From a virus: a DNA stretch of 13,309 nucleotides. The DNA is taken from the UHGV virus genome UHGV-0315017. One strand, 5' to 3'. Each line of letters starts with the position of its first letter. The first letter of the stretch is position 1. Shown piece by piece: positions 1 through 13,083 of the stretch. A model generated the notes under the pieces. That model was not told the origin of the DNA, did no database searches, and saw only the letters and a program-made list of their open reading frames with translations. Made by a program: the position numbers and the translations under genes.

Positions 1-1
1 G

Positions 2-331: not shown

Positions 332-350
332 TTAATTATAAATCAGTTAG
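324..350 (+). other. Stem-loop overlapping the stop codon of the upstream gene (10-bp arms CTAACTGATT / AATCAGTTAG, 7-nt loop)
   Basis: Perfect inverted repeat read directly. No U-tract follows, so more likely a processing or attenuation structure than an intrinsic terminator. Confidence 0.35.
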
Positions 351-405
351 CAAAATATCTTACTTGCAATCGGTGTGGAAAACGGTAGTATTAGTAGCCA
401 CGAGT

Positions 406-482
406 CGGCACGTAGCGCAGCCTGGTAGCGCACCGTCATGGGGTGTCGGGGGTCGGAGGTTCAAATCCTCTCGTGCCGACCA
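406..482 (+). tRNA. proL: tRNA-Pro, anticodon GGG
   Basis: 77-nt sequence CGGCACGTAGCGCAGCCTGGTAGCGCACCGTCATGGGGTGTCGGGGGTCGGAGGTTCAAATCCTCTCGTGCCGACCA; cloverleaf features (GTAGCGCAGCCTGGTAGCGC D-arm, GGTTCAAATCC T-arm, U-GGG-G anticodon loop, encoded CCA). Confidence 0.9.
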
Positions 483-487
483 AATCG
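461..487 (+). other. Putative attL core (3' end of tRNA-Pro), partner of a degenerate copy at 12004-12035
   Basis: TCAAATCCTCTCGTGCCGACCAAATC here versus TTAAACTACTCTCGTGGACCAAAAATC at the far end of the element (CTCTCGTG...GACCAAA shared). Confidence 0.5.
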
Positions 488-489
488 CC

Positions 490-507
490 CACCGGAAAGC
501 ACCGGAT
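490..507 (+). promoter_or_regulatory. Paired direct repeat CACCGGA-N3-CACCGGA (candidate recombination-directionality or regulator binding site)
   Basis: Same paired motif recurs at 564-580 and 2394-2410; read directly. Confidence 0.35.
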
Positions 508-520
508 AAGACAGGGATAA

Positions 521-551
521 CCCGCTAATCACTTGATTGGCGGGTTTTTTT
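521..551 (+). terminator. Rho-independent terminator downstream of tRNA-Pro
   Basis: CCCGCTAATC / GATTGGCGGG stem (one U-G wobble), 4-nt loop, followed by TTTTTTT. Confidence 0.7.
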
Positions 552-563
552 ATGTTTTTTAGT

Positions 564-580
564 CACCGAACATCACCGGA
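564..580 (+). promoter_or_regulatory. Paired direct repeat CACCGA-N5-CACCGGA (second copy of the CACCGGA motif pair)
   Basis: TCACCGAACATCACCGGATT resembles TCACCGGAATACACCGGATT at 2392-2412. Confidence 0.35.
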
Positions 581-603
581 TTTATAAGCTATCAGCCGGA
601 TTT

Positions 604-660
604 TTTAGTTATACGTTTAGTTATACGGGCTGGCGTATAACTAAAGCCGTATAACTAAAA
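604..660. repeat. Arm-type repeat cluster: two direct copies of TTAGTTATACG followed by two inverted copies CGTATAACTAA (candidate integrase arm sites)
   Basis: TTAGTTATACGTTTAGTTATACGG gctgg CGTATAACTAAAGCCGTATAACTAA read directly; the direct-copy half recurs at 11928-11952. Confidence 0.55.
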
Positions 661-690
661 CCCTGTTTTTTCGTGTGGAATCATAGACAT

Positions 691-1932
691 ATGGCGAGAA
701 AAACACACCCATTAACCACAGTGCAGATCAAAGCAGCCAGACCAGCGCAAAAGGAGTACACCCTGCAGGACGGCGGAGGGCTTTTTCTCCTGGTCAAACC
801 GTCTGGATCAAAACTCTGGAGATTTTCCTACTACCGACCATCGGACAAAAAAAGAATATTGCTGAGTTTTGGATCGCTTGAAGATGTTTCCCTGGCTGAT
901 GCCAGAAAACGCCGTAGCGAGTACAGGACGTTAATCAGTGCCGGAACTGACCCGCAGGACCACGAGAGGCAAAAAAGAGAGACAGAGGCCCGAAGACAAG
1001 GGAACACGTTCGAAAATGTGGCGGCGGCATGGTACCAGGTGAAAATCAGCCAGAATCTGGCCCCCAACACGATTAAAGACATCTGGCGTTCGCTGGATAA
1101 ATATGTATTCCCGTTCATCGGCAACACGCCAATAGATACCCTCACCGCCCGAAGGTTCGTTGAAGTGCTTACCCCCATCAAGGAGCGCGGCAACCTGGAA
1201 ACACTCAAGCGGGTTTTACAGCGCGTTAATGAGGTAATGGATTACGCCGCCAACAGTGGGCTGATTGATGCCAATCCGGCTATGAATGTGCGTAAGGCGT
1301 TTCCCTCACCTGTAAAAAAACATATGCCAACAATCCGCCCCGAACAGCTGCCGGAGCTTATGCAGGCTTTATCAGTATCGGCAACAGAACGGCAGACCAG
1401 ATTACTGATTGAATGGCAGTTACTGACCGTAACCCGTCCCGCCGAAGCGTCATCAACGCGGTGGGATGAAATCAACCTGGACGCGAAGCAATGGACGATA
1501 CCTGCCGGACGCATGAAGATGCGCAGGGATCACGTTATCCCGCTTTCCGGTCAGGCTATGGCGGTGCTGGAGGCCATGAAACCAATCAGCCACCACCGCA
1601 ATTACGTTTTCCCAAGTCTGAAAGACCCACAGCAGCCGATGAACAGCCAGACAGCTAACGCAGCATTGCGGCGTATGGGATTCGCTGGCGTGCTGGTGTC
1701 TCATGGATTACGCGCCATATTCAGCACAGCAGCGAACGAGGAAGGATTCGAGCCGGACGTAATAGAGGCGGCACTTGCCCACGTCGACACCAACGAAGTT
1801 AGACGGGCATACAACCGGAGCAACTACATAGAAAAACGCATCGTGCTGATGCGCTGGTGGGGCGAATTTGTCGAGGCTGCGGCGACGGGCGTAACCCTCG
1901 CCAGTGGTAAAAGGGGTATCCGAGCCGTGTAG
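691..1932 (+). CDS. int: Tyrosine recombinase / integrase, P4 type
   Basis: N-terminal region (LTTVQIKAARP...YTLQDGGGLFLLVKPSGSKLWRFSYY) typical of P4-family integrases; C-terminal catalytic region with HGLR and terminal Tyr motifs (VSHGLRAIFSTAA...AYNRSNY). ATG at 691 preferred over GTG at 673 from the ORF track. Confidence 0.9.
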   Translation: MARKTHPLTTVQIKAARPAQKEYTLQDGGGLFLLVKPSGSKLWRFSYYRPSDKKRILLSFGSLEDVSLADARKRRSEYRTLISAGTDPQDHERQKRETEARRQGNTFENVAAAWYQVKISQNLAPNTIKDIWRSLDKYVFPFIGNTPIDTLTARRFVEVLTPIKERGNLETLKRVLQRVNEVMDYAANSGLIDANPAMNVRKAFPSPVKKHMPTIRPEQLPELMQALSVSATERQTRLLIEWQLLTVTRPAEASSTRWDEINLDAKQWTIPAGRMKMRRDHVIPLSGQAMAVLEAMKPISHHRNYVFPSLKDPQQPMNSQTANAALRRMGFAGVLVSHGLRAIFSTAANEEGFEPDVIEAALAHVDTNEVRRAYNRSNYIEKRIVLMRWWGEFVEAAATGVTLASGKRGIRAV

Positions 1933-2009
1933 CTGTACAGAAAACCAGTAAAAACTACGAAAACCATGTAAAACCGTCGTATAATTGCATCAAATTTAAC
2001 GACAAGGCC

Positions 2010-2261
2010 GTGAAACATGAAACCGTTAAGATGCAAAAAAATATCAGATGCAATTGCGACGGGCTGCAACTGGCCCTGATGGTTCAGCATGAATTTTGGT
2101 CAACCTACGATCCGGAGGACAGGACGACGGCCCCATCAAAAAAACAGGTAGTAGATTTTCTGGTATCCCGTGGCGCTTCCAGAAATCTGGCGGTAAGTAT
2201 TGATAAGGTCGTACGTCCGGCATCTATGAAGATCGGAGGCAGGCCCAAAAAATGGCGGTAA
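2010..2261 (+). CDS. Hypothetical small protein (83 aa); weak call
   Basis: ORF without a convincing Shine-Dalgarno sequence; followed closely by a strong terminator; could instead be a non-coding leader. Confidence 0.3.
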   Translation: MKHETVKMQKNIRCNCDGLQLALMVQHEFWSTYDPEDRTTAPSKKQVVDFLVSRGASRNLAVSIDKVVRPASMKIGGRPKKWR

Positions 2262-2272
2262 CAATCCTGGAA

Positions 2273-2295
2273 GCGGCAGAAATGCCGCTTTTTTT
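2273..2295 (+). terminator. Rho-independent terminator
   Basis: GCGGCAGAAATGCCGC hairpin followed by TTTTTTT. Confidence 0.7.
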
Positions 2296-2393
2296 ATAAT
2301 TCCATTTCAAATCATCAATATAAAAAACGGTGTATACCGTTTAAAAACGGTGGGAACTGTTTTTACCCATATCCGATGATTTACCGTATTTGT

Positions 2394-2410
2394 CACCGGA
2401 ATACACCGGA
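2394..2410 (+). promoter_or_regulatory. Paired direct repeat CACCGGA-N3-CACCGGA just upstream of the AlpA-like gene
   Basis: GTCACCGGAATACACCGGATT 19-35 nt upstream of the ATG at 2429; same motif pair as near attL. Confidence 0.35.
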
Positions 2411-2428
2411 TTCACAAGGTAAATCACG

Positions 2429-2635
2429 ATGGAAGCAATCAGAAAAATTATCTTTCGCCAGGAAGTAAAAAAAATTATCCACATCAAGGCAGACAGCACG
2501 CTGCAAAGCATGATCAACGCCGGAGAATTTCCGCAGGGTTTTCGCGTTGGTTTACGCCGTCGCGGATGGTATGAGGATGATGTGTTGGCCTGGCAGAAAG
2601 AACGCGAACAGGAAGCACGCGGAACGGCTGCTTAA
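2429..2635 (+). CDS. alpA: AlpA-family (prophage regulatory / excisionase-like) helix-turn-helix protein
   Basis: 68 aa; spacing of conserved residues (STL..I..G.FP....LG.R..GW.E.DV..W) matches the AlpA/Xis-like family as recalled; position after int is typical for P4-like and PICI elements. Confidence 0.75.
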   Translation: MEAIRKIIFRQEVKKIIHIKADSTLQSMINAGEFPQGFRVGLRRRGWYEDDVLAWQKEREQEARGTAA

Positions 2636-2660
2636 CGGGTATCACAGATATGACAAACAC

Positions 2661-2688
2661 GAAAAAAGCGGCCCCGATATGGAGCCGC
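2661..2688 (-). terminator. Probable terminator for the leftward RHH operon
   Basis: GCGGC / GCCGC stem with 11-nt loop; on the minus strand it is followed by a T6 run (plus-strand CGAAAAAA at 2661-2667). Confidence 0.45.
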
Positions 2689-2783
2689 CTTTCTGAACAA
2701 TTAACCCGCTGCGCCTTATGTGTATGTGATCCCAAACATAAGCACGGGGATGATAGCCGCTATCAGGCTGGTGGGCAATGCAA

Positions 2784-2972
2784 TCAGTCTGGTTCAGTTC
2801 GTTGCCATACCTGCAATGAGCGCTTTTCCCTATACTCTTTAAGGAATTGCTCAAGGGCAAAAGCACATGGCGCGAATCTTTCTGATTCATGCTCTATCTT
2901 TCTGCGCCGTCTTTTCCGTGCCGGTGATAATGTTTTGGTCAATTCTTTATCAGTCATTGTGTTGTCCTGCAT
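2784..2972 (-). CDS. Hypothetical basic small protein, downstream partner of the RHH gene (alternative start at 2957 has a better SD)
   Basis: 62-aa ORF with KRRRRK basic patch; ATG at 2957 is preceded by AGGAC; convergent with alpA and ends before the terminator at 2661-2688. Confidence 0.4.
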   Translation of the reverse strand: MQDNTMTDKELTKTLSPARKRRRRKIEHESERFAPCAFALEQFLKEYREKRSLQVWQRTEPD

Positions 2973-3014
2973 AGCAATGCGCCGTAATACCTCACACCAC
3001 GGCGCTGATAGTGA

Positions 3015-3194
3015 TTATTCTGATTCTTTGGCCTTGCGGCGCTGGCGGCGTTTGATCTCGCCTTCAAGTGCCGAAACGATAAATTGCCCTGTACTTTCGC
3101 CATCTTCCTTTAAATTTTCTACAGCATCAGCTATTGCGTGAGGTACTCGAGCCTCAAGCTTTTTGGATTTTGCATTAACTGCTTTTGTTGCCAT
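3015..3194 (-). CDS. Ribbon-helix-helix (CopG/Arc-like) DNA-binding protein, candidate island repressor
   Basis: Internal start MATKAVNAKSKKLEARVPHAIADAVENLKEDGESTGQFIVSALEGEI: basic beta-strand then two helices; GAGGAA SD 7 nt upstream of the ATG at 3194. The ORF-track 5' extension to 3323 is rejected. Confidence 0.65.
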   Translation of the reverse strand: MATKAVNAKSKKLEARVPHAIADAVENLKEDGESTGQFIVSALEGEIKRRQRRKAKESE

Positions 3195-3363
3195 ATCTGA
3201 TTTCCTCGTTATTAGGTGGCTGACAGTATACACACAAGAAAACGGAAAAACACTATTGACGTGGCTGACACCTTTATCAAGGTAATCGATGAAAAGACAA
3301 AGCCCCGCAAGTGTCGTTACCACTCGCAGGGCTTCTAACCAACAACGTAAACTAGGAGCCGTT
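3195..3363. promoter_or_regulatory. Divergent promoter region with direct repeats GTGGCTGACA (3215-3224 and 3260-3269)
   Basis: One repeat overlaps a rightward TTGACG -35-like hexamer, the other lies beside a leftward TATACT -10-like hexamer. Confidence 0.5.
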
Positions 3364-3561
3364 ATGGTTGCTGTAAATCATATACCACACCTTGTACACA
3401 CACAAACGGCCTTTGTGTGGCGTTTTCTGGCACTGAGTGCCGGAGAATCTCAAATCATCCACGTAACCGCCTGGACGGAACGCGAAGCGCGTGGCCGTTG
3501 CCCGTCCGGTTGTGTTGCAGTATTCGCCGCCCGTATTCGTCAGGGGTCACATCATGCGTAA
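3364..3561 (+). CDS. Hypothetical small protein, paralog A (65 aa)
   Basis: AGGAG SD 7 nt upstream; shares FVWRF...TEREAR...ARIRQG motifs with the product of 3848-4015. Confidence 0.5.
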   Translation: MVAVNHIPHLVHTQTAFVWRFLALSAGESQIIHVTAWTEREARGRCPSGCVAVFAARIRQGSHHA

Positions 3562-3639
3562 AAACCGCTTGCAAAAAATTATAACGGGGCTGTATGCTTC
3601 CCCCGTCGCCCACATGGCGACCGGGTTTAGCAGCCTGAA

Positions 3640-3683
3640 TACTGTAGCGGACAGCCGCTTATATTCCGATATGCGGTTTTTTT
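3640..3683 (+). terminator. Hairpin plus T-run between the two paralog genes
   Basis: AGCGGACAGCCGCT and CCGC..ATAT/ATATGCGG stems followed by TTTTTTT (3677-3683). Confidence 0.4.
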
Positions 3684-3847
3684 GTGTCCGTAAGCCTACC
3701 CATACCCGCATTATGGCGGGGCGTAACGGGGGAGCCTTTGCGCTCGCTGGTTCCTACAGTGCCAGTCTGCTAACCCTGTTACGTCTCGCCACCCCGTTTA
3801 GCAGCGTAGTAGCGAGACTCCTTAAAATTACTGTAGGAGCCTTTCAC

Positions 3848-4015
3848 ATGGCTGTATCCGCACGCCCTTACTTTGTCTGGCGCTTTATGCAGTGCCAGGA
3901 AAAACAAACATCACTCTTTACCGTCACGGCAGCAACAGAACGCGAAGCCCGCGCCCAGCTGCCGCACGCACATCTGATTTTTGTCGCCCGTATTCGTCAG
4001 GGGGTAGGCTTATGA
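3848..4015 (+). CDS. Hypothetical small protein, paralog B (55 aa)
   Basis: AGGAGCC SD 9 nt upstream of ATG 3848; C-terminal 46 aa align with paralog A. The 174-aa ORF-track call from 3491 is rejected. Confidence 0.5.
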   Translation: MAVSARPYFVWRFMQCQEKQTSLFTVTAATEREARAQLPHAHLIFVARIRQGVGL

Positions 4016-4242
4016 GCCAGGAAATCACACTACAACAGGCAGCAGAACGCGCCCACCAAATCGAAGTTATTTGCGCACTGGCAGAGGATTACCCTGGCAT
4101 GATGACCGACAGCGAATCAGGGGCAATCATCGGCTTACTTAAACGCCTTAGCGGTGAGGTCTGCGTATTCCTGATCGATGAACAGGAAAGAAGAACGCTT
4201 ATTTCTAACGAAAAAAAATGCGGAGGGGTACATGTGCAATAA
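4012..4242 (+). CDS. Hypothetical protein (76 aa), translationally coupled to paralog B (ATGA overlap)
   Basis: Internal Met of ORF 3892-4242 with start overlapping the upstream stop; no recognisable motif. Confidence 0.45.
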   Translation: MSQEITLQQAAERAHQIEVICALAEDYPGMMTDSESGAIIGLLKRLSGEVCVFLIDEQERRTLISNEKKCGGVHVQ

Positions 4243-4462
4243 AACCACACCGGACGCAGCAGAAGAAGCAATGCAAATACTGATACGTGCGCTCGTTGAT
4301 GTTACCCACATGGTGGAGATTATGGAGAGAAAATCACAGTCGGAGCACGACAAAAGAAAACTTAAAACAATAAAAATAATTGCCAAAAACTCGCTGATAA
4401 AAGTTACAGACATCCTTAATGAGGACATTAAAAGAATAAGGGAGAAAATTTGTGATGCATAA
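4232..4462 (+). CDS. Hypothetical protein (76 aa) in AT-rich segment
   Basis: GGAGGGG SD 5-6 nt before ATG 4232; Lys/Ile/Glu-rich, predicted helical; composition visibly more AT-rich than flanks. Confidence 0.5.
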   Translation: MCNKTTPDAAEEAMQILIRALVDVTHMVEIMERKSQSEHDKRKLKTIKIIAKNSLIKVTDILNEDIKRIREKICDA

Positions 4463-4682
4463 AATCGATTTTGAAGTATTAATCCACTCTGAAAACGCAT
4501 TAATTAAAGCACGCGAAATGAATGCGTTGTTAATTAAATTAATTGAAGTGCCGGAAGGTGGCGAAGATCATTCATCATTAATGTTTGCCGCTGTTCAGAC
4601 ATTATTGACACCTGTTATTGATGAACTCAATAAGGCTATGGCAATTCACGAGAATAATAAAGCGCCCCACACCGGAGAATAA
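4455..4682 (+). CDS. Hypothetical protein (75 aa) in AT-rich segment, overlaps the previous gene
   Basis: GGAGAA SD 8 nt before ATG 4455; start overlaps the stop of 4232-4462. Confidence 0.5.
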   Translation: MHKIDFEVLIHSENALIKAREMNALLIKLIEVPEGGEDHSSLMFAAVQTLLTPVIDELNKAMAIHENNKAPHTGE

Positions 4683-4687
4683 AAATA

Positions 4688-4987
4688 ATGAAACTTAAAT
4701 ATTCTGGCTTAACTGCCAGTGGCAAAACTCGCACTAAATTCATGCGCGGTGATATTTACCGCGACCAGTACGGCGGCACGGTAATGATTAAGGGCGTGGA
4801 GGAACGGCGCATCACCTACCGTCGTGAAGGCTACGAATATGATTGCGTGATGCCTGTTTATCAGTTTCGGCGTGATTTTTCTCTGGTACAGGCAGCGCCC
4901 CGCAGTAAACCAACCAGCAGGGAGAAAGCACGCGCCAATATTCAGGAAATAAAAAAGATGCTTAACGTATTCAGGGGTAAAAAATGA
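4688..4987 (+). CDS. Hypothetical protein (99 aa) immediately upstream of and coupled to the primase gene
   Basis: GGAGAA SD; stop overlaps the primase start (ATGA at 4984-4987). Confidence 0.55.
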   Translation: MKLKYSGLTASGKTRTKFMRGDIYRDQYGGTVMIKGVEERRITYRREGYEYDCVMPVYQFRRDFSLVQAAPRSKPTSREKARANIQEIKKMLNVFRGKK

Positions 4988-6732
4988 AACTGGCACCGAA
5001 CGTAAAAAAACAACCACGCGGAATAAAACACAAAGACACAGAGGTAATTATTTTCGCGGGTAGTGATGCGTGGGCACATGCAAAACAGTGGCAGGAGCAG
5101 GACGGCCCCGCATCCGGCGATAATGTGCCGCCTGTGTGGCTTGGGCCAAATCAGCTTGCCGAACTTGATGCACTGAAAATTGTTCCGGATGGAAAAAAAC
5201 GCGTAAGGCTGTACCAGGCCGGAGAACTGGATTTGGTGGAGACCAAAAAGATTGGTCAGAAGCTGGCGGCGGCAGATATTCAGGACGCAAATTTTTACCA
5301 CGAAGGAATGCACGTCCAGAAGTGTGAAAACTGGCGGCGCTATCTGAATGCTGAGCGTGAAAATATTGCCGCAGGGCTTACCATGCCGGAGCAGAAAAAT
5401 ACGCAACTGGCACAAATGGCAGACAGTGAGCGCGCGCAGCTGCTTGCCGAGCGCTTTGATGGCGTTTGTGTGCATCAGGAAAGTGAAATCGTTCACGTAT
5501 GGCGCGGCGGGGTATGGTGTCCGGTCAGCACAATGGAACTTAGCCGCGAAATGGTGGCGATCTATTCAGAGCACAGGGCCACTTTCAGCAAGCGCGTAAT
5601 CAATAACGCCGTGGAAGCGTTAAAAGTTATTGCCGAACCAATGGGCGAGCCGTCCGGCGATTTGCTGCCGTTCGCCAATGGTGCGCTTGACCTGAAAACG
5701 GGGGAATTTTCCCCGCACACGCCGGAGAACTGGATCACCACGCACAACGGCATTGAGTACACGCCACCAGCACCTGGGGAGAACATCCGCGATAACGCGC
5801 CAAACTTTCATAAATGGCTTAAGCACGCAGCCGGAAAAGACCCGCGCAAGATGATGCGTATATGTGCCGCGCTGTACATGATTATGGCGAACCGGTACGA
5901 CTGGCAGATGTTTATTGAGGCCACCGGAGACGGCGGGAGCGGTAAAAGTACATTCACGCACATAGCCAGCCTTCTGGCAGGGAAACAGAACACGGTAAGC
6001 GCTGAAATGACATCGCTTGATGATGCTGGTGGACGTGCGCAGGTTGTCGGGAGTCGTCTTATCGTCCTGGCTGACCAGCCGAAATATACAGGCGAAGGAA
6101 CGGGCATCAAGAAAATCACGGGCGGTGACCCCGTGGAAATTAACCCGAAATACGAAAAGCGTTTCACGGCTGTAATCAGGGCGGTGGTGCTGGCGACCAA
6201 CAATAACCCGATGATATTCACCGAACGGGCCGGAGGTGTGGCACGTCGTCGCGTGATTTTCCGTTTCGACAATATCGTCAGTGAGGCCGAAAAAGACAGG
6301 GAGCTACCGGAAAAGATCGCGGCTGAAATCCCTGTCATTATCCGCCGATTGCTGGCGAACTTTACCGACCCTGAGAAGGCACGGGCTTTACTACTGGAAC
6401 AGCGTGACGGTGATGAAGCTCTGGCAATAAAGCAACAGACGGATCCGGTTATTGAGTTTTGCCAGTTCCTGAATTTTCTGGAGGAAGCACGCGGCCTGAT
6501 GATGGGCGGCGGTGGCGATTCAGTGAAGTACACGACCAGGAACAGCCTTTACCGCGTCTATCTGGCGTTTATGGCATACGCAGGCAGGAGCAAACCGCTA
6601 AACGTAAATGACTTTGGCAAGGCTATGAAGCCTGCCGCAAAAGTTTACGGACATGAATATATTACGCGGAAAGTTAAGGGGGTAACGCAGACTAACGCAA
6701 TAACAACAGACGAGTGCGACGCGTTTTTATAA
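4984..6732 (+). CDS. Replication initiator: primase / SF3 (D5-like) helicase, P4 alpha-like C-terminal region
   Basis: 582 aa with Walker A GDGGSGKST and downstream helicase-like motifs; size and position match the pri-rep genes of P4-like and PICI elements. Confidence 0.85.
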   Translation: MKLAPNVKKQPRGIKHKDTEVIIFAGSDAWAHAKQWQEQDGPASGDNVPPVWLGPNQLAELDALKIVPDGKKRVRLYQAGELDLVETKKIGQKLAAADIQDANFYHEGMHVQKCENWRRYLNAERENIAAGLTMPEQKNTQLAQMADSERAQLLAERFDGVCVHQESEIVHVWRGGVWCPVSTMELSREMVAIYSEHRATFSKRVINNAVEALKVIAEPMGEPSGDLLPFANGALDLKTGEFSPHTPENWITTHNGIEYTPPAPGENIRDNAPNFHKWLKHAAGKDPRKMMRICAALYMIMANRYDWQMFIEATGDGGSGKSTFTHIASLLAGKQNTVSAEMTSLDDAGGRAQVVGSRLIVLADQPKYTGEGTGIKKITGGDPVEINPKYEKRFTAVIRAVVLATNNNPMIFTERAGGVARRRVIFRFDNIVSEAEKDRELPEKIAAEIPVIIRRLLANFTDPEKARALLLEQRDGDEALAIKQQTDPVIEFCQFLNFLEEARGLMMGGGGDSVKYTTRNSLYRVYLAFMAYAGRSKPLNVNDFGKAMKPAAKVYGHEYITRKVKGVTQTNAITTDECDAFL

Positions 6733-6744
6733 TTTTTTGTAATT

Positions 6745-6972
6745 GCTGTCTACCCTGTCTACCCGAGTAAAGAAAAATACATTTAATTCAGTGCATTAAG
6801 TTAGGTAGATGGCCTTTTTTTACTGTCTACCCACTATCTACCCTCTCTACCTGATTTTACCTGAATCAGACAGGGAGGTAGACACGGGGTAGATACTGGA
6901 TAAAAGCACTCTACCCCGCTGAAAGCCGCGCCATTACTGGTATGAGGGCCACTAAGGTAGATAAGGTAGACA
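6745..6972. repeat. Iteron array (candidate replication origin): about 12 copies of TCTACC(C) / GGTAGA(C/T) in both orientations
   Basis: CTGTCTACCCTGTCTACCC, GGTAGATGG, CTGTCTACCCACTATCTACCCTCTCTACC, GAGGTAGACACGGGGTAGAT, CTCTACCCC, AAGGTAGATAAGGTAGAC; non-coding and immediately downstream of the primase-helicase gene. Confidence 0.65.
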
Positions 6973-7020
6973 AGGGGAGGCACAACTCAAAACTTTTTAA
7001 ACGAGGGGGTAAAAATAAAT

Positions 7021-7299
7021 ATGCACACTTCAGGGAAATTTAATAAATCACTCAAAAAACGCAGAGACAGAACAGAACCGAAATATCGCGCGTTAGACAT
7101 TACAGAGCACGCTTTAAAGGTGGCAATCAGAACGATAGACCGCCACGCGGGGGAAGGATACGCGAAAGCACATCCCGAACTGATAAGCGCATTCATGACC
7201 ACGACGGCGGCAAATTTTGCCACGCTGACAGAGCGGGAGATTGCCGAAGCGGAACAGGTAACAACCATCAACGTTAAAACCGGAGAGGTGGAATCATGA
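7021..7299 (+). CDS. Hypothetical protein (92 aa)
   Basis: GAGGGGG upstream of ATG; coupled to the ssb start (ATGA at 7296-7299). Confidence 0.55.
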   Translation: MHTSGKFNKSLKKRRDRTEPKYRALDITEHALKVAIRTIDRHAGEGYAKAHPELISAFMTTTAANFATLTEREIAEAEQVTTINVKTGEVES

Positions 7300-7706
7300 C
7301 AGCACAGATAGCCGCTTACGGGCGGCTAGTGGACGACCCGCAGGTAAAACAGACCAGCAAGGGCACACCGATGACGCTGGCGCGTATGGCGGTATCGTTG
7401 CCATGTAGTCAGGCGCAGGATGGGCAGGCGACGTTATGGCTATCGGTCATCGCATTTGGTAAGCAGGCCGACTTCCTGGCTAAACATCAAAAAGGCGACG
7501 TTGCCAGCGTATCCGGCACGATGCAGGTCAGCCAGTGGACCGGACAGAACGGGGAAACGCGGCAGGGTTATCAGGTTATTGCAGACAGCGTAATCAGTGC
7601 CCGTGCGGCACGTCCTGGCGGGAACAGACGCAAAACCACAGGCACACAGGGTAATCAGCCACCAGCGGGAGACGATGACCCCTACGGTGATGATATTCCG
7701 TTCTGA
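7296..7706 (+). CDS. ssb: Single-stranded DNA-binding protein (compact, 136 aa)
   Basis: OB-fold-like N-terminal region, Gly/Gln/Pro-rich linker and acidic C-terminal tail DDDPYGDDIPF matching the conserved SSB tail (...DDDIPF). Confidence 0.85.
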   Translation: MTAQIAAYGRLVDDPQVKQTSKGTPMTLARMAVSLPCSQAQDGQATLWLSVIAFGKQADFLAKHQKGDVASVSGTMQVSQWTGQNGETRQGYQVIADSVISARAARPGGNRRKTTGTQGNQPPAGDDDPYGDDIPF

Positions 7707-7714
7707 ACGCACAG

Positions 7715-7736
7715 GCCGGAGAAAATCCGGCTTTTT
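7715..7736 (+). terminator. Rho-independent terminator after ssb
   Basis: GCCGGA gaaaa TCCGGC hairpin plus TTTTT. Confidence 0.75.
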
Positions 7737-7742
7737 GTATCC

Positions 7743-7786
7743 AAAAAAAGCCCGATAAGTACAGGAGGAAGCTTATCGGGCTTTTG
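7743..7786. terminator. Second hairpin terminator (bidirectional: A-run upstream, T-run downstream)
   Basis: GCCCGATAAG ... CTTATCGGGC 10-bp stem, 12-nt loop, then TTTT. Confidence 0.6.
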
Positions 7787-7858
7787 CTTACGAGGTTAAC
7801 AGCATGGTGACTACTGTTGCCGTAAATCATTTCATAATTTGCAACGTAACTCAATTTC

Positions 7859-7908
7859 ATTGCGCAAAATGCAATCCTGATTATAATCAGGACTGGATGA
7901 ACATCCAG
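7859..7908 (+). promoter_or_regulatory. Candidate capsid-operon promoter (TTGCGC - 16 bp - TATAAT) embedded in an 18-bp perfect palindrome, followed by a second palindrome
   Basis: TCCTGATTATAATCAGGA (7875-7892) contains a consensus -10 hexamer; CTGGATGAACATCCAG (7893-7908) follows directly; about 35 nt upstream of the ATG at 7944. Confidence 0.5.
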
Positions 7909-7943
7909 TTATGATTTTTTAAGTCAAAGAGGAATTTCTTACT

Positions 7944-9206
7944 ATGGCTGAAGAGAAAAAAGGCGGTGTTTCGGTGTACATAAGCCCCGACATCGTGAAG
8001 GCGCTCAAGGAACGCCACCAGCAGAACGTAAAAGCAGGCATTGCGGCAGGACTTGACCCGCTGGCGATGGTTGAGCCGTCAACAGGCTGGCAGGTACGCG
8101 CCTATTTACGCGCGGCGCTGGGTATGAATCAGGTTCACGGGGGGGGAATAATGACAGTAAAAGCAATGGCACTTAACACTAACCAGCTTTTTGCGTACCT
8201 GAATCGCGAGGATATTGCGGAATTTAAATTCAGTCCGCTGTTTACCACGCTGTTTTTCCCGAACGTGGCGACATTCAGCACGCAAAACATCATGCTGGAT
8301 ACCCTGGACATTGAAGAAGTCACCATGTCGGCGTTTTGTTCGCCTATGGTGGGTAGCCAGGTTCAGCGCGATAAAGGGTACGAAACCAGCACAATCAAAC
8401 CTGGCTACATGAAGCCAAAGCACGAAATCGATCCAACGAAAACCATCATGCGCATGGCTGGAGAAGATCCGGCACAGCTTAACGACCCTACCTATCGCCG
8501 TATGCGCCTGATTACTGGCAATATGCGCCGCCAGATAAACGCCATAAAAGCGCGCGTGGAATGGCTGGCGGTAAATGCGGTAACGACCGGAAAAAACATC
8601 ATTGAGGGCGAAGGCATAGAGCGCTATGAAATCGACTGGAAGATACCGGAAAAAAACATCATAGAGCAGGCCGACGGTAAAAAATGGTCAGAGCAGGACA
8701 AAGAAATCCACGATCCAATCTATGATATCGAACTATACGCCGATCAGGCAGGTTGCCCCGCCAACGTCATGATTATGGGCGCTGAGGTATGGCGAACGTT
8801 ACGCAGCTTTAAAAAATTCCGTGAGCTGTACGATCTTTCCCGTGGTTCAGAGTCCGCCGCAGAGCTGGCATGTAAAAACCTGGGCGAAGTGGTGAGCTTT
8901 AAAGGCTATCTGGGCGATATTGCCCTTATCGTCTATTCCGGCAAATACGCCGACAGTGACGGCAGAGAAAAATATTTCCTTGAGCCTGATTTGCTTGTCC
9001 TGGGCAACACCAACAATAAAGGGCTGGTGGCCTATGGTGCGATTATGGATCAGGACGCAGTAAGAACGGGGGCAACGCAAAACATGTACTACCCGAAAAA
9101 CTGGATTGAGGACGGAGATCCGGCGATTGAGTACGTGCAGACACACAGTGCACCGCAGCCGGTACCGGCAGTTATTCGCAAATTTGTTACCGTCAAAATT
9201 GGTTAA
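7944..9206 (+). CDS. Major capsid protein, lambda gpE-like, with about 70-aa N-terminal extension
   Basis: Long blocks shared with lambda gpE as recalled: KFSPLF..LFF, PGYMKPKHE, EDPAQLNDPTYRRMR, SFKGYLGDIALIVYSGKY, LVLGNT, YPKNW..GDPA. AGAGGA SD before ATG 7944. Confidence 0.88.
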   Translation: MAEEKKGGVSVYISPDIVKALKERHQQNVKAGIAAGLDPLAMVEPSTGWQVRAYLRAALGMNQVHGGGIMTVKAMALNTNQLFAYLNREDIAEFKFSPLFTTLFFPNVATFSTQNIMLDTLDIEEVTMSAFCSPMVGSQVQRDKGYETSTIKPGYMKPKHEIDPTKTIMRMAGEDPAQLNDPTYRRMRLITGNMRRQINAIKARVEWLAVNAVTTGKNIIEGEGIERYEIDWKIPEKNIIEQADGKKWSEQDKEIHDPIYDIELYADQAGCPANVMIMGAEVWRTLRSFKKFRELYDLSRGSESAAELACKNLGEVVSFKGYLGDIALIVYSGKYADSDGREKYFLEPDLLVLGNTNNKGLVAYGAIMDQDAVRTGATQNMYYPKNWIEDGDPAIEYVQTHSAPQPVPAVIRKFVTVKIG

Positions 9207-9217
9207 CGGGGGATTCT

Positions 9218-9553
9218 ATGGACACTCCATACATTGAGTTATTTGCAGGCAGTCAGCAGGTCGCCACGACGCTGGTACATTTTGCCGCTGATGCTGGCTT
9301 TATTCAGGAATTTACCCCGCTGATGCTGGCGGACAATGGCGAGTTTAAGCCGTGGGATGGTAAGGAATCTGGCAAGGCTGTTTATCTGACCTCGTACCCT
9401 GTGGACACGTCAAAGCAGAAATCAGCACAGTGTTACAAGACGGGGATATTCAATATTGCCGCCGTTAACTGGCCTGAGAGCGTCGACACCGATGCGAAAA
9501 AATGCGCCGCCTTTGCGGGTTCCGGCGTATCCGTTCAGCCGCTGGCCCGATAA
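9218..9553 (+). CDS. Head decoration protein, lambda gpD-like
   Basis: 111 aa; TPLML, WDG, YKTGIF, WPE and KK.AAFAG blocks match lambda gpD (110 aa) as recalled; GGGGG SD. Confidence 0.85.
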   Translation: MDTPYIELFAGSQQVATTLVHFAADAGFIQEFTPLMLADNGEFKPWDGKESGKAVYLTSYPVDTSKQKSAQCYKTGIFNIAAVNWPESVDTDAKKCAAFAGSGVSVQPLAR

Positions 9554-9565
9554 GCAGGGGGAACG

Positions 9566-9979
9566 ATGGCAACGAATGAAAGCATCATGACGCTACCGCT
9601 GGCGAGTAAATTTAAAGCCGAAGCGCGGGCAATGGCTGACAGAGGTTTATCAACCTATGAGGCCGTATATCAACTAAACAAACTGGAAGAGCAGGACAAG
9701 CCGCGCGCTGATGCGATTATGGCGCTTCATGAGCATAAAGACTATCAGCCGCTGTTGCGTGCAATGGCAAACGTGCCTTGTATCGATGTTGGTACGGCTA
9801 AAAGCATCCTTAGCATGACCATAGAGCAGGAACGCCAGAAGGTTGCACCAGAGCTTACCGCAGCCTTTGAAAACTTTATGGACATGCACAGCCCGCAAGC
9901 CGTATCAGCTGGCATGGCATACGATGGCAGAAACCAGGGCGATGACGGCGACATCGATCGCATACTGAAAACCATCTGA
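9566..9979 (+). CDS. Hypothetical protein (137 aa) between the decoration gene and cos
   Basis: AGGGGGA SD; acidic C-terminus (QGDDGDIDRILKTI); no family recognised. Confidence 0.6.
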   Translation: MATNESIMTLPLASKFKAEARAMADRGLSTYEAVYQLNKLEEQDKPRADAIMALHEHKDYQPLLRAMANVPCIDVGTAKSILSMTIEQERQKVAPELTAAFENFMDMHSPQAVSAGMAYDGRNQGDDGDIDRILKTI

Positions 9980-9985
9980 GACAAG

Positions 9986-10009
9986 GCCGGAGAAATCCGG
10001 CTTTTTTTT
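9986..10009 (+). terminator. Rho-independent terminator (near-duplicate of the 7715-7736 hairpin)
   Basis: GCCGGA gaaa TCCGGC plus TTTTTTTT. Confidence 0.8.
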
Positions 10010-10010
10010 A

Positions 10011-10086
10011 CGGGTCCTTTCCGGCATATGGACCCGTTACGGGGCGGCGACCTCGCGGTTTTTCGCTATTTATGAGCTTTTTCAGG
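10011..10086 (+). other. Lambda-type cos site X (cosQ-like, cosN, I2-like); cohesive-end 12-mer at 10042-10053
   Basis: ACGGGTCCTTTCCGG...CCGTTACG|GGGCGGCGACCT|CGCGGTTTTTCGCTATTTATGA closely matches the lambda right-end/left-end junction as recalled (…CGGGTCCTTTCCGGTGATCCGACAGGTTACG | GGGCGGCGACCTCGCGGGTTTTCGCTATTTATGAAA). Confidence 0.8.
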
Positions 10087-10186
10087 GGGGTGGTGGTGGT
10101 TTTGTTGTTTGCTCTATCTTTATGAATGAAAAGGGAAAGATGCAAACAATACACCAACCTGAAGCAGTAATTAAGTTGGTGTATTA

Positions 10187-10729
10187 ATGAAATCGCACCT
10201 GATGAACAAAAAAAACATGGCGAAAAGCTGCCGTGTAAGTGCGACAGCGTTCGACAAGTGGGGAGTGACTCCCGTTGAACGTAAAGGCCGTGAGGCGTTT
10301 TACGATGTTGCCAGCGTGATAGACAATAGGGTTAACAATGCAATTAGCCAGCTTACAAACGACAAAGGCGATATTGATGATGATGAACTCTTACGAGTCA
10401 GGATCAGATTACTGACAGCACAGGCGGAGGCGCAGGAACTTAAAAACGAGCGCGATCGCGGTGACGTGATTGATACTGAGTTTTGCCTGTACGCGCTTTC
10501 AAAGCTGGCGAGTCAGATTTCATCAATCATGGACAGCCTCCCGCTTACTATGCAAAGGAGCTTCCCACAGATTACCCCCGCCATGCTGGATAGGCTTAAA
10601 AGGGAAGTGGTTAAAGCCTGTAATGCCAGTGCCAGAGTTGCCGACAACCTCCCACAGATACTGGCTGATTACTTGAAAGAAACAACCGGAAACGTACCGG
10701 AAAAGTTGCTACAGAAGAAAGGCGAGTAA
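10187..10729 (+). CDS. Terminase small subunit, lambda Nu1-like
   Basis: 180 aa (Nu1 is 181); N-terminal HTH region and central block LTAQAEAQELKNERDRGDVIDTEFCLYALSKLASQISSIMDSLPLTMQRSFP align with lambda Nu1 (LTRAQADAQELKNARDSAEVVETAFCTFVLSRIAGEIASILDGLPLSVQRRFP) as recalled. Confidence 0.85.
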   Translation: MKSHLMNKKNMAKSCRVSATAFDKWGVTPVERKGREAFYDVASVIDNRVNNAISQLTNDKGDIDDDELLRVRIRLLTAQAEAQELKNERDRGDVIDTEFCLYALSKLASQISSIMDSLPLTMQRSFPQITPAMLDRLKREVVKACNASARVADNLPQILADYLKETTGNVPEKLLQKKGE

Positions 10730-10753
10730 CAGACGCGCAATTATTGAACAAAA

Positions 10754-10868
10754 CTGAGAAACGACATGAAAGCGTCATAAATCGCCATTTTAGATGATTA
10801 CCGTGTCGTTTCTTTTTATTGTGTATCTATTTAAAAACAAATAGTTATGTTCGAGAAGTACCGACATG
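10754..10868 (-). promoter_or_regulatory. cosB-like region belonging to cos site Y: R1-like (10754-10768), R2-like (10801-10817), IHF/I1-like AT tract (10821-10844), R3-like (10852-10868)
   Basis: Read on the minus strand from cosN-Y the order is R3-like, I1-like, R2-like, R1-like, as in lambda cosB; cores GTCGTTTCT resemble lambda R sites but differ in their 3' halves. Confidence 0.6.
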
Positions 10869-10874
10869 CTTTTT

Positions 10875-10952
10875 CCAGAAAAATTTTCATAAACAGATAA
10901 AAACCGCGAGGTCGCCGCCCCGTAACGGGCCATAATTCCAGGAAGGACCCGA
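10875..10952 (-). other. Lambda-type cos site Y in inverted orientation; cohesive-end 12-mer at 10909-10920 (minus strand)
   Basis: Reverse complement reads CGGGTCCTTCCTGGAATTATGGCCCGTTACGGGGCGGCGACCTCGCGGTTTTTATCTGTTTATGAAAATTTTTCTGG, about 75 bp near-identical to site X and forming an inverted repeat with it. Confidence 0.8.
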
Positions 10953-10984
10953 CGACACCAGACTATCAGAGCGATGGGGGCACA

Positions 10985-11167
10985 ATGACAGAAGCCGAAA
11001 TACTGGGATTAATCCGCCGTGATGGTATCCAGCTTAATGGCGTGGATATGCGCAACATACGAACCAGAGTTCTTGAGTTGCTGGCCTACCGTCGCCGCGT
11101 TGAGATGTATCGGGAGAAGGAAAAAATTACGTACCACTGGAAGAAGCCGGAGCGGTTGCGGCGGTAA
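10985..11167 (+). CDS. Hypothetical small basic protein (60 aa)
   Basis: GGGGG SD 5 nt before the ATG; Arg-rich; no family recognised. Confidence 0.4.
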   Translation: MTEAEILGLIRRDGIQLNGVDMRNIRTRVLELLAYRRRVEMYREKEKITYHWKKPERLRR

Positions 11168-11231
11168 CTGGTTGATATTTTCGGAAACCTCAATTTGAGG
11201 AGGCCGGAAGCGTCACCCTTTAGATTCTGAA

Positions 11232-11246
11232 TGGTGATAATCACCA
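11232..11246. repeat. 15-bp palindrome TGGTGATAATCACCA (copy 1 of 3)
   Basis: Perfect palindrome; flanked CTGAA...CGCC. Confidence 0.6.
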
Positions 11247-11255
11247 CGCCCAATC

Positions 11256-11290
11256 GTGACGGAGAGTGACAGCCAGTGACACGCCGTGAC
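11256..11290 (+). repeat. Four direct GTGAC repeats at exact 10-bp spacing
   Basis: GTGACggaga GTGACagcca GTGACacgcc GTGAC; one helical turn per repeat. Confidence 0.5.
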
Positions 11291-11399
11291 AAAAGACGGT
11301 TTAACCGTTAATTAAAAATCGACGGGATTTTGTGTTTTCCGGACGACGTGGCCAACGTCATTTTTTAGCGAAAAATTCTGATTAAGGTCATTGTCTGAA

Positions 11400-11414
11400 T
11401 GGTCATAATGACCA
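11400..11414. repeat. 15-bp palindrome TGGTCATAATGACCA (copy 2 of 3)
   Basis: Perfect palindrome, preceded by CTGAA like copy 1. Confidence 0.6.
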
Positions 11415-11494
11415 CGCAGACCATCAAGGCAACCATAACGATTTTCGTTACGGTTGATGTGTGCCTTCGTCCGGCATTCGGACGATATAAGGGA

Positions 11495-11509
11495 TGGTCA
11501 TAATGACCA
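11495..11509. repeat. 15-bp palindrome TGGTCATAATGACCA (copy 3 of 3)
   Basis: Identical to copy 2. Confidence 0.6.
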
Positions 11510-11657
11510 CTCCTACAGAACAGGTAAAACCCACCAGCCTGATTAACAGTTAACCGGAAAAAAATCCGGCATGGGGGGGGAGTGGTTAGCCACGAACAAC
11601 GAATAAGCTGGACACCGCGCCCCCTCTCACGCAGAGAAAAAATTACCGTTTCGTAGT

Positions 11658-11790
11658 AGTTAACATGTTAACTGCCTGATGAAGCGTTGTTGTTGATTTT
11701 GTCTTTATGATTCATCTGGTTGCGAGCAAAAAATGTTAACTACCTTTTTGGTAAAAATGTTAACAGGGCAGAGGTTAACATTAACCTGGC
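11658..11790. repeat. Cluster of GTTAAC-containing motifs including the 16-bp palindrome AGTTAACATGTTAACT
   Basis: AGTTAACATGTTAACT, AATGTTAACTACC, AATGTTAACAGGG, GGTTAACATTAACC read directly in non-coding DNA. Confidence 0.4.
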
Positions 11791-11796
11791 GTAAAT

Positions 11797-11822
11797 CCCG
11801 ATATGGTGATCACCATATCGGG
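11797..11822. repeat. 26-bp perfect palindrome CCCGATATGGTGATCACCATATCGGG
   Basis: Read directly; equals its own reverse complement. Confidence 0.6.
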
Positions 11823-11927
11823 GAACATCCACCAGCTTAAAAACGAATGAGCGAAAAAAAATCCAGGTAGAATCATGGAAGTCGCTAGGGCAATCGCCGT
11901 TTAAATTGTGCATTTTTTCAGCAAATT

Positions 11928-11952
11928 ATTTTAGTTATACGTTTGGTTATAC
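11928..11952 (+). repeat. Arm-type direct repeat TTTTAGTTATACGTTTGGTTATACGG, partner of 604-628
   Basis: 24 of 25 positions identical to the left-end copy. Confidence 0.55.
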
Positions 11953-12003
11953 GGTTTAAAAGTTGAATCAATAATATTTATTAAAATCATGCGGTTACAC
12001 GCT

Positions 12004-12035
12004 AAATTAAACTACTCTCGTGGACCAAAAATCCC
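12004..12035 (+). other. Putative attR core: degenerate copy of the tRNA-Pro 3' end
   Basis: TAAATTAAACTACTCTCGTGGACCAAAAATCCC versus tRNA TTCAAATCCTCTCGTGCCGACCAAATCGCCC. Confidence 0.5.
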
Positions 12036-12068
12036 AAGAAAAAACCAACCTTCACGGTTGGTTTTTTT
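12036..12068. terminator. Bidirectional rho-independent terminator between the island end and the convergent autotransporter-like gene
   Basis: A-run, CCAACC ttcac GGTTGG hairpin, T-run (GTTTTTTT). Confidence 0.75.
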
Positions 12069-12129
12069 ATATCTGCATTTAATTCGATAAACAGACAGCG
12101 ACACATCACGGCCTGTTTATTTTCTGTTA

Positions 12130-13083
12130 TCAGAACGTCCAGACTACACCCGCCTGAGTTGTGCTGCTTTCTTCACGGGAGAAACGACTATCGATACCGA
12201 GCGTCAGCCCCGTCAATGTTTGCTCAAAGCCAGCGCCTGCATCAGTGGTCACGTCGTTGCGGCTGTTAATTGCCGAACTCCACATCGCCGTATCGTAATT
12301 AACGCCTTTTACGCTACCAAGACGCCCACGCACGGTGTCCAGTTCTGCATCAAATACCAGCGGTTGTGCTGCCGCCATATTCAGCACATCCGTGGTTGAA
12401 GGGGTCATTTGTGCGCGATTCTCTGCGAGACTCCAGCTATGGTTGCCATTATCCAGCAAGGTATATTCATACGTACTGATATCAACAACGCTTCCGGCAT
12501 TGCCCAACGTAAATGCAGCATCACCGCCGCCCGTTGTTACCAGTGTAAGGCTATCTCCTGCTGCCGGGCTGGCACCGGTGTCCGTCACGAATATTTTGAA
12601 ATCACCTGTTGCTTTAACCTCCAGTAGTCCTCCCTTTTCTATAACGGCAAAGACGGCAATCCCATCTTTTTCAACAATTAAGCGCCCGCCTTTAATCGTG
12701 GGATCATTCGCCGCGCCATAAACCTGTAGCACTCCATTATTGATCGTAGTCTGATTTACCGCGCCACCCATTTGAACAATTTGATAACCATCATTTAATA
12801 CTGCGTATTCTGCGGTGCCATTTATTTCAACGTACTGATATCCCCCGTTAATTTCAGTATTACTACTTACACCAAATTCTTATATATGCTGTTCTCCGCC
12901 AGGATTGATTTTCGTATTATTGGCGGTCCAATAAACCAGCTGGATATCTTTTTCCAGGACAACACCATCAACTGGCTCACCATACTCAACAGTTGATGCC
13001 AATGCTATGGGCGAATATAACGCTGTAGCCACCAGAACAGATATTGCGGAACGACAAAGAGAAACAGAACCAGATTGGTGCAT
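12130..13083 (-). pseudogene. Autotransporter/adhesin-like gene interrupted by an in-frame TAA (12880-12882); possibly a yejO-type locus
   Basis: ORFs 12880-13083 (signal-peptide-like N-terminus) and 12130-12771 (Gly/Thr-rich beta-helix-like repeats ending ...VVWTF) are in the same frame, separated by a single TAA. The total length is too short for a complete autotransporter. Confidence 0.5.

Follow-up and report, generated by a model that had tools for sequence, protein, structure and literature searches.

Introduction

Phage-inducible chromosomal islands (PICIs) belonging to the cos type in Escherichia coli are a model for the theft of phage packaging by satellites and are being engineered as delivery vehicles. 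For one of them, EcCICFT073, an architecture with two cos sites has already been published, and the sequences of cos1 and cos2 are printed in a supplementary figure of Fillol-Salom et al. 2019 (PMC6739421). cos1 was needed for lambda- and phi80-mediated transfer of EcCICFT073, the cosB of cos1 was recognized by a heterodimer of RppA and the small terminase subunit (TerS), transfer was abolished by the double deletion of cos1 and cos2, and each site, when cloned, made a plasmid transducible (PMC6092414, PMC6739421). According to PMC6092414, PMC6739421 and PMC9026076, no phage cosB is recognizable in the island. The texts of these three papers do not mention the orientation of the sites, the first two do not report inversion, and Murialdo and Feiss 2022 (PMC9026076) do not mention cos2; a nanopore paper on capsid DNA (PMC12946183) contains no data on the termini of E. 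coli PICIs. In the literature searched, cos2 was left unexplained. In phage N15, cosB is a single functional R3 (GAGGTTGTTGTT) at bp 48-59, without a site for integration host factor (IHF), R2 or R1 (PMC4669245, PMC9026076).

The stretch analysed here, UHGV virus genome UHGV-0315017 (13,309 nt, referred to as the window), is identified by its gene order, size and attachment-site (att) duplication as a cos-type PICI of the EcCICFT073 family, i.e., a phage satellite of E. coli, of about 11.5 kb at tRNA-Pro, and is a TerS-encoding relative of EcCICFT073. Its terS gene is bracketed by two lambda-type cos sites in inverted orientation, designated X (upstream) and Y (downstream). The reading developed below, which as a whole we consider probable, is that X is the island's own packaging site and is read by the island TerS, that Y is a copy of a helper cos, and that the inverted cassette flips. 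cos2-type sites would thereby be given an identity, that of a swappable complete helper cos. No description of such sites as complete, exchangeable copies of a helper cos, of the N15-like nature of the TerS/X pair or of natural inversion of the cassette was found in the open-access literature searched, and prior description elsewhere is possible.

Two inverted cosQ-cosN sites around the island terS

The arms of the inverted repeat, the cosQ and cosN sequences and the enclosed gene are located as follows.

10011-10082, no strand assigned: left arm of the 72-nt inverted repeat, containing cosQ, cosN and about 30 bp beyond (repeat finder)
10012-10018, plus strand: cosQ heptamer GGGTCCT of X, 30 nt upstream of cosN, spacing as in lambda
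10042-10053, plus strand: cosN of X, homologue of EcCICFT073 cos1 (12-mer match and comparison with the published cos1)
10187-10729, plus strand: island terS, Nu1 family, 180 aa, occupying the rppA position of EcCICFT073
10880-10951, no strand assigned: right arm of the 72-nt inverted repeat (repeat finder)
10909-10920, minus strand: cosN of Y, homologue of EcCICFT073 cos2 (12-mer match and comparison with the published cos2)
10944-10950, minus strand: cosQ heptamer GGGTCCT of Y, 30 nt upstream of cosN, spacing as in lambda

A preliminary description of the window, made from its sequence, had reported a cosN-like 12-mer (GGGCGGCGACCT) on both strands within a near-identical inverted repeat that includes the cosQ side, and both points were confirmed. 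The 12-mer is exact at 10042-10053 on the plus strand and at 10909-10920 on the minus strand and has no further exact copy in the window; simple arithmetic gives a chance expectation of about 0.002 exact copies for the two strands of 13.3 kb. An independent repeat finder returned the two arms as 72 nt long, 82% complementary and 797 nt apart, each with its cosQ, and a 31-bp core of the left arm (10033-10063) is perfectly identical to the right arm. When both sites were aligned to the lambda cos junction in the cosQ-to-cosB orientation, X and Y each matched lambda at 24 of the 28 nt just after cosN; past those 28 nt, the identities were 36/60 and then 35/100 for Y, and 27/60 and then 24/100 for X. 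Both sites have the 12-bp cosN with GGGTCCT 30 bp upstream, as in lambda. The product of terS matched Pfam PF07471 Phage_Nu1 (E = 2e-23) and, over nearly its whole length, the small terminase family PHROG 57 (E = 3e-53); its true start is possibly M6, at 10202. The lambda alignment and these matches support the earlier view of two lambda-type cosQ-cosN sites inverted around a Nu1-family terS.

EcCICFT073, located next to phoQ in CFT073, has the same gene order, with the 144-aa RppA at the position of terS; of its two cosN sequences, the plus-strand one is 100 nt upstream and the minus-strand one 204 nt downstream of rppA. The published cos1 and cos2 and the arms of the window, flanks included, have near-identical sequences. 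X is the counterpart of cos1, the upstream site, and Y that of cos2, the downstream inverted site, which was printed reverse-complemented. Rpp proteins are TerS mimics of 139-154 aa, whereas the open reading frame (ORF) of the window encodes 180 aa, belongs to the Nu1 family and shares 13-17% identity with RppA in the aligned DNA-binding and middle regions. By these sequence comparisons the island is a TerS-type variant of the EcCICFT073 family, and this TerS-type group probably operates without an Rpp protein. A search of PDB sequences with TerS gave no match at E < 0.06 and none to RppC or the lambda Nu1 fragment, and no TerS relatives beyond E. coli were found in two genome-contig scans (with the single protein and with alignment A1).

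Site X and the DNA-binding domain of TerS

10089-10110, plus strand: candidate simple cosB of X, an N15-type R3-like element (GGTGGTGGTGGTTTTGTTGTTT) at bp 48-69 from cosN, aligned with N15 R3

At X, cosQ, cosN, a short cosB and terS follow each other in the sense direction, i.e., in phage order, and the terS start codon lies at bp 146 from cosN (N15, bp 89; lambda, bp 191). The earlier statement that neither site has the lambda order of cosN, cosB and sense Nu1 was thus wrong for X. A complex cosB was not found at X, where the only match to the lambda R 16-mer had five mismatches and was at chance level. The R3-like sequence of X (GGTGGTGGTTTTGTTGTT) is conserved across islands and was placed by the aligner against N15 R3. 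It was kept in all eight examined TerS-type islands with the unflipped layout, one of which has a different cosN, and was also carried, slightly varied, by the flipped islands of PM4-5 and 2014C-4587. X carries GGTTTTGTTGTTT, conserved in eight islands, at bp 57-69, compared with bp 48-59 for the N15 R3, a shift of about 9 bp.

The best match to the island TerS among deposited phage TerS proteins was gp1 of N15, at most 46% identical. In the DNA-binding domain, 28 of 47 positions (60%) are identical to N15 gp1, with the same compact wing lacking the lambda insertion, and the identity to lambda, Sp11, phi4 and PhiR5_1 in this domain is 26-30%. Among islands, the domain is 96-98% identical. The C-terminal part, which corresponds to the region binding the large terminase subunit (TerL), is 69-100% identical among islands, and compared with phages it is closest to PhiR5_1 (51%) and PhiR12_1 (47%), with about 33% identity to lambda, N15 and the 21-type.

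Several further observations were made around X. The (GGT)n/G-run tract that starts the R3-like element (10085-10100, with homologous tracts in L010-L017) varies in length among islands, which shifts the distance between the GTTGTT core and cosN by a few bp. The island of S1-CHI-01-A (L016, around 1356) has a variant cohesive end (GGGCGTCAGGCG) at X and keeps cosQ and the R3-like element, with no second cos. An 11-bp inverted repeat just 5' of terS (AATACACCAAC/GTTGGTGTATT) was considered as a TerS site and dropped, the second arm being not conserved in ETEC4091, E41 and SCU-112.

Site Y and its variation among islands

10853-10868, minus strand: R3-like element of Y (CATGTCGGTACTTCTC), bp 53-68 from cosN, 21/Sp11-type
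10819-10852, minus strand: AT-rich R3-R2 spacer of Y, aligning with lambda I1 (putative IHF site), about 91% identical to the Sp11-type prophage cos
10802-10818, minus strand: R2-like element of Y (core AGAAACGACA), bp 108-117, opposite in orientation to R3 and R1, one of the two arms of inverted repeat I2
10753-10772, minus strand: R1-like element of Y (core TGTCGTTTCT), bp 155-164 from cosN, the other arm of inverted repeat I2

The R-like elements of Y are forward at bp 53-68, inverted at bp 103-118/108-123 and forward at bp 149-164, which agrees within a few bp with R3 (50-65), R2 (109-124) and R1 (151-166) of lambda. Three matches to the lambda R 16-mer with 4-5 mismatches were obtained at Y, where shuffles would give 0.22 (P about 0.004), and the R2/R1 pair was independently flagged as inverted repeat I2 by the repeat finder. 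A complex cosB, with R3, a putative IHF site, inverted R2 and R1, is therefore present at Y only, where, as first described, it enters the 3' end of terS in antisense. The idea, raised at the same time, that the R-like cores of Y reflect an altered terminase specificity did not hold up: the core TGTCGTTTCT matches the lambda core TGTCGTTTCC at 9 of 10 positions, and the R3 of Y has exactly the sequence found in prophage Sp11 and differs only slightly from its counterpart in CFT073 phi4. Over R3-I1, Y is about 91% identical to Sp11/phi4; across its full length it shares 83% identity with the PhiR5_1 phage cos, which sits directly upstream of Nu1.

The TerS of the O157:H7 island is 98% identical to that of the window and its X is the same, but its Y has an unrelated cosB with three elements and a CAGATCC core, which matches a prophage cosB in FDAARGOS_1255 located immediately upstream of TerS and TerL. 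EcCICFT073 cos2 is a third type of Y, with a ATGTCCGG core; its identity to the PhiR12_1 phage cos, which likewise lies directly upstream of Nu1, is 97%. The islands of ETEC4091 and 1919D62 have an inverted second cos (L010, 2406, minus strand; L014, 2230, minus strand) with a GGGTCCT cosQ and a different cosN (GGGCGGGAGCAT), so that the two sites of one island would give incompatible cohesive ends. In SCU-112 (L013, 2044-2085), Y is deleted from the terS stop codon into cosN, leaving CCGCCGCCC and the cosQ side, with the end-point within cosN, and no second cos site is present in the islands of E41, 23CRST031 and S1-CHI-01-A. X was retained in every TerS-type island examined, and Y was varied, truncated or absent. 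Absence of a site from homologous islands, which the earlier description had named as speaking against its interpretation, was found for Y and not for X.

As separate observations, several types of R core were seen in the cosB of lambdoid prophages, namely ATGTCGG (21/Sp11/phi4), TGTCGTTTC (lambda/PhiR5_1), CAGATCC (the FDAARGOS_1255 prophage) and ATGTCCGG (PhiR12), and for every type a matching distal cos occurs in some island (loci L003, 34745, CFT073 phi4; L012, 1077, Sakai Sp11; L024, 1289). A third cos-like site was seen in the island of 2014C-4587 (L021, 401, plus strand; GGGTCCT, 23 nt, GGGCGCGGGATC), between ssb and the capsid block, which suggests that islands can gather more than two cos sites.

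terS together with this type of Y was found in about 481 of 5426 complete E. coli genomes; the TerS-type sister group is widespread (about 9% of complete genomes) and includes the O157:H7, Nissle 1917 and ATCC 25922 lineages. In a sample of 60 evenly spaced records out of 1604 matching ones, 18 were full length, 3 had a truncated Y and 8 had terS without a Y detectable by megablast; the remainder had only the cosN-R3-I1 part of Y, in lambdoid prophages.

The 98% identity of TerS between the window and the O157 island, with unrelated cosBs at Y, means that the island TerS cannot be specific for Y. One constant DNA-binding domain facing several unrelated cosBs points to X as the partner of the island TerS and to Y as a helper-type site, and on the basis of these alignments we infer that X is probably the partner of TerS and Y a modular, exchangeable copy of a helper-type cos. 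Covariation of the TerS C-terminal type with the cosB type of Y was also considered and was rejected, since the window and the O157 islands share an identical C-terminal domain and have different Y sites.

The preliminary description had assigned the functions the other way round, with Y as the real initiation site by virtue of its R3/IHF/R2/R1 series and X as an incompetent decoy, a termination site or the footprint of terS capture. The restriction of the lambda-like R series to Y, the lack of R2/R1 repeats at X and the plasmid transfer permitted by cloned EcCICFT073 cos2 speak for this assignment. It is nevertheless very unlikely, and the two roles are probably reversed: cos1, the homologue of X, is required for EcCICFT073 transfer, which the deletion of cos2 improves; X with its R3-like element is kept in all eight unflipped islands and X is present in every TerS-type island examined, whereas Y is absent, truncated or replaced in some and has different cosBs in islands with 98% identical TerS. 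A missing R2/R1 series does not imply an incompetent site, because N15, which has the closest TerS DNA-binding domain, works with a fully functional single-R3 cosB.

Another reading is that Y is a functionless relic, i.e., phage cos DNA gained by recombination with a helper at the shared cosN and now decaying, with only X mattering. The increase in transfer after cos2 deletion, the lack of Y in E41, 23CRST031 and S1-CHI-01-A and its truncation within cosN in SCU-112 fit this explanation, which we regard as unlikely. Intact cosQ, cosN and three well-spaced R elements are found in about 480 genomes, and at least four phage-type versions of Y occupy the same position and orientation, which argues for repeated acquisition or retention and against a single copy in decay. 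Moreover, EcCICFT073 without cos1 still transfers, and transfer is lost only when cos2 is removed too.

Natural inversion of the cassette

Since cutting at both inverted cosN sites would free the interior with two identical 5' overhangs, it was asked whether a flipped cassette exists. A synthetic query, in which window 10083-10879 was reverse-complemented, was used for the search, and the same approach was applied to the Rpp module. The TerS cassette was flipped in 5 genomes (query matched over 95-97% of its length) against about 480 unflipped, and the Rpp cassette was flipped in 15 genomes against 68 in the CFT073 orientation, i.e., about 1% of the TerS type and about 18% of the Rpp type. Three flipped genomes (PM4-5, 2014C-4587 and WP4-S17-ESBL-08) were verified by annotation and blastn; their flanks are collinear, and the orientation changes within the repeat arms. 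In both PM4-5 and 2014C-4587, the annotation puts terS and the capsid genes on opposite strands, and a blastn comparison finds window 10011-10951 reversed between flanks that remain collinear, up to 10075 on the left and from 10875 on the right. These two islands lie at different chromosomal loci and have different Y types, so at least two independent inversion events took place. In WP4-S17-ESBL-08, a protein identical to CFT073 RppA is encoded on the opposite strand at the same phoQ locus with unchanged flanking genes, and the sequence, flipped back in silico, is 100.0% identical over 1482 nt to HM670, CU568-3, KE51 and others. Such unflipped twins indicate that the WP4 inversion is recent.

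The exchange point in PM4-5 and 2014C-4587 is inside a 31-bp identical core, from -9 to +22 around cosN, whereas the WP4 and O157 lineages have 'right-type' cosQ-proximal sequence on both arms, with exchange or gene conversion further out. This pattern favours, as far as arm sequences can tell, inversion by homologous recombination of one arm with the other, which cos cleavage may stimulate. Exact cutting and flipping by terminase as the sole route was downgraded, because the exchange points in the WP4/O157 lineages lie beyond cosN.

A regulated DNA switch, in which inversion toggles the expression of terS/rpp or the polarity of packaging in a phase-variable manner, would likewise produce two orientations. 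Both orientations are natural, sequence-identical isomers exist, and the terminator just 5' of X means that orientation relative to the capsid operon could matter. We nonetheless consider a switch quite improbable: neither an invertase nor a recombinase gene was found in or beside the cassette, the only recombinase of the window being the island integrase, 8 kb away, and the arms are packaging sites, not recombinase sites. The flipped form is, in addition, a minority in both types, and the exchange points vary by lineage (cosN core in PM4-5/2014C-4587, outer arm in WP4/O157), which fits general homologous recombination or gene conversion.

A more specific proposal, which we put forward tentatively, is that the inverted cos pair forms a cos-bounded, invertible and exchangeable specificity cassette whose rearrangement is stimulated by terminase and is not just passive polymorphism. 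The helper terminase would cut cosN, and the excised segment, with two identical overhangs, would re-anneal either way; alternatively, the cuts at cosN would make ends for Red or RecA exchange in the 31-47-bp identical core. By either route the cassette would invert, and satellites and helper phages would exchange cosB and specificity genes. If true, satellites would re-tune their helper range at each induction. The flipping of the cassette in nature opens the questions of which terminase acts on which site, why the sites are inverted and whether cos cleavage drives exchange between satellite and helper.

Proposed packaging model

The proposed reading, in which X serves the island TerS and Y is a copy of a helper cos, can be put together as follows. 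X would be the island's own site, in which cosQ and cosN are followed by a short cosB of N15 style that has just one R3-like element, and would be read by the N15-like DNA-binding domain of TerS. The variable C-terminal domain of TerS would recruit the large terminase subunit of the helper, and island TerS together with helper TerL would use X. Y would be a full helper-phage cos (cosQ-cosN-R3-spacer-R2-R1), usable by the unmodified holoenzyme of the helper, and would be an add-on that can be lost. The two sites would give a second packaging route and perhaps a wider helper range.

In lambda, packaging is polar from cosB, and termination requires that cosQ-cosN be encountered in the right polarity. 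Each site would therefore be ignored by a terminase started at the other, with packaging from X running rightward past Y and packaging from Y running leftward past X, and a start at either site would give unit-length island DNA from a concatemer. With a pair of cos sites in direct repeat, a run started at one would end at the other, and the specificity gene would be deleted or duplicated. From this polarity we infer a reason for the orientation: an island may be able to keep two working sites stably only if they are inverted. As a side effect, the cassette of roughly 0.8 kb (cosB1, terS or rpp, cosB2) would flip through exchange within the cos repeat. A double cut in a single molecule would be destructive, which would explain the higher transfer after cos2 deletion with non-cognate helpers.

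Several points weigh against this reading. The GTTGTT core of X is 9 bp further from cosN than that of N15, and the spacing between R3 and cosN is critical in lambda. The search within terS for a second copy resembling the N15 rR2 gave at best 10355-10367, with 2 mismatches in 12, which is at chance level. The N15-type assignment of the X/TerS pair is, for these two reasons, likely but not proven. The compatibility of TerS with TerL is deduced from about 50% identity in the C-terminal part only, and a promoter scan gave no sigma-70-like promoter for terS within the cassette. The 15 flipped Rpp-type genomes score identically and may thus represent a single event. Finally, cos2 deletion raises the transfer of EcCICFT073 by lambda and phi80 (PMC6092414, PMC6739421), so that, with these two phages, sites of the Y type may be costly or neutral.

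Other features of the island

406-484, plus strand: tRNA-Pro(GGG) and attL (ARAGORN), with the 17-bp att core at 468-484
9983-10004, plus strand: terminator-like hairpin with T-run, closing the capsid/decoration/phrog_1999 block just 5' of X
10985-11167, plus strand: small conserved ORF (phrog_1561) next to Y on its outer side, marking the right flank that stays the same in flipped and unflipped isomers
12015-12031, plus strand: attR, repeat of the tRNA-Pro 3' end (K-12 empty-site alignment)

The K-12 empty site aligned to window 1-484 and 12015-12159 with an overlap of 17 bp, the 3' end of tRNA-Pro, which places the island at about 485-12031 (about 11.5 kb) between 17-bp copies at 468-484 and 12015-12031, the att duplication of an EcCICFT073-type PICI. 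According to ORFs and Pfam/PHROG matches, the island encodes an integrase, an AlpA-like regulator, a D5/P4-type primase and a single-stranded DNA-binding protein (SSB), followed by a capsid block (lambda-E-family capsid, lambda-D-family decoration and phrog_1999 proteins) and then by the 180-aa ORF between the cos sites. This gene order and the size agree with those of PICIs (about 10-15 kb), as judged by comparison of the annotation with CFT073 and MS 21-1, and the phrog_1999 proteins of the window and EcCICFT073 are near-identical.

The phrog_1561 ORF (10985-11167) has lost about 99 nt in frame relative to its 282-nt EcCICFT073 homologue (L005, 26374-26655), and a near-identical copy in MS 21-1 is annotated as a partial pseudogene. 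At 7944-9206, one 420-aa ORF fuses phrog_3255 (aa 1-67) to the capsid protein phrog_29, and in related islands (L004, 9046-9252 and 9252-10307; L005) the two are annotated as separate genes in different frames; the ORF is either a real fusion or the result of a one-base indel in the window sequence. Towards the right end of the island, two 92% identical copies of a 24-nt near-palindromic sequence (TCTGAATGGTGATAATCACCACGC) form a direct repeat at 11226-11249 and 11394-11417, 168 nt apart, and may be operator-like protein-binding sites.

Comparison with known systems

The window shares with EcCICFT073 its family, gene order and near-identical cosQ-cosN cores and outer flanks, with one site upstream and one inverted downstream, and an upstream site with a short non-lambda cosB. 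It differs in encoding a full-length 180-aa Nu1-family TerS with a TerL-binding-region C-terminus, whereas EcCICFT073 encodes the 144-aa TerS-mimic Rpp, and both cosBs differ in sequence between the two islands. With N15 it shares the compact DNA-binding domain of TerS (60%), a short interval between cosN and terS and one candidate R3-like element with a GTTGTT core, without IHF site, R2 or R1. The core of X is, however, 9 bp further from cosN behind the variable (GGT)n tract, there is no clear rR2, the cosN has the lambda sequence, and the C-terminal domain of TerS is like those of other lambdoid phages. Site Y resembles the complex cosB (R3-I1-R2-R1) of lambda, 21, phi80 and prophages in order, orientation and spacing, with lambda-like R2/R1 and a 21/Sp11-like R3, but it lies in a satellite and is directed away from every terminase gene, extending in antisense into the terS 3' end. 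The staphylococcal island SaPIbov4, for which two cos sites are reported as cited in PMC6092414, is, as far as that citation goes, likewise a satellite with two helper-type cos sequences, and differs in its unrelated sequences and host.

In herpes simplex virus, the 'a' sequences, which are cleavage/packaging signals, are located in inverted repeats that accompany the inversion of genome segments. The likeness to the island, packaging sites in inverted repeats with the intervening DNA found as orientation isomers, is an analogy only, the herpesvirus being a eukaryotic virus with far larger segments and unrelated proteins.

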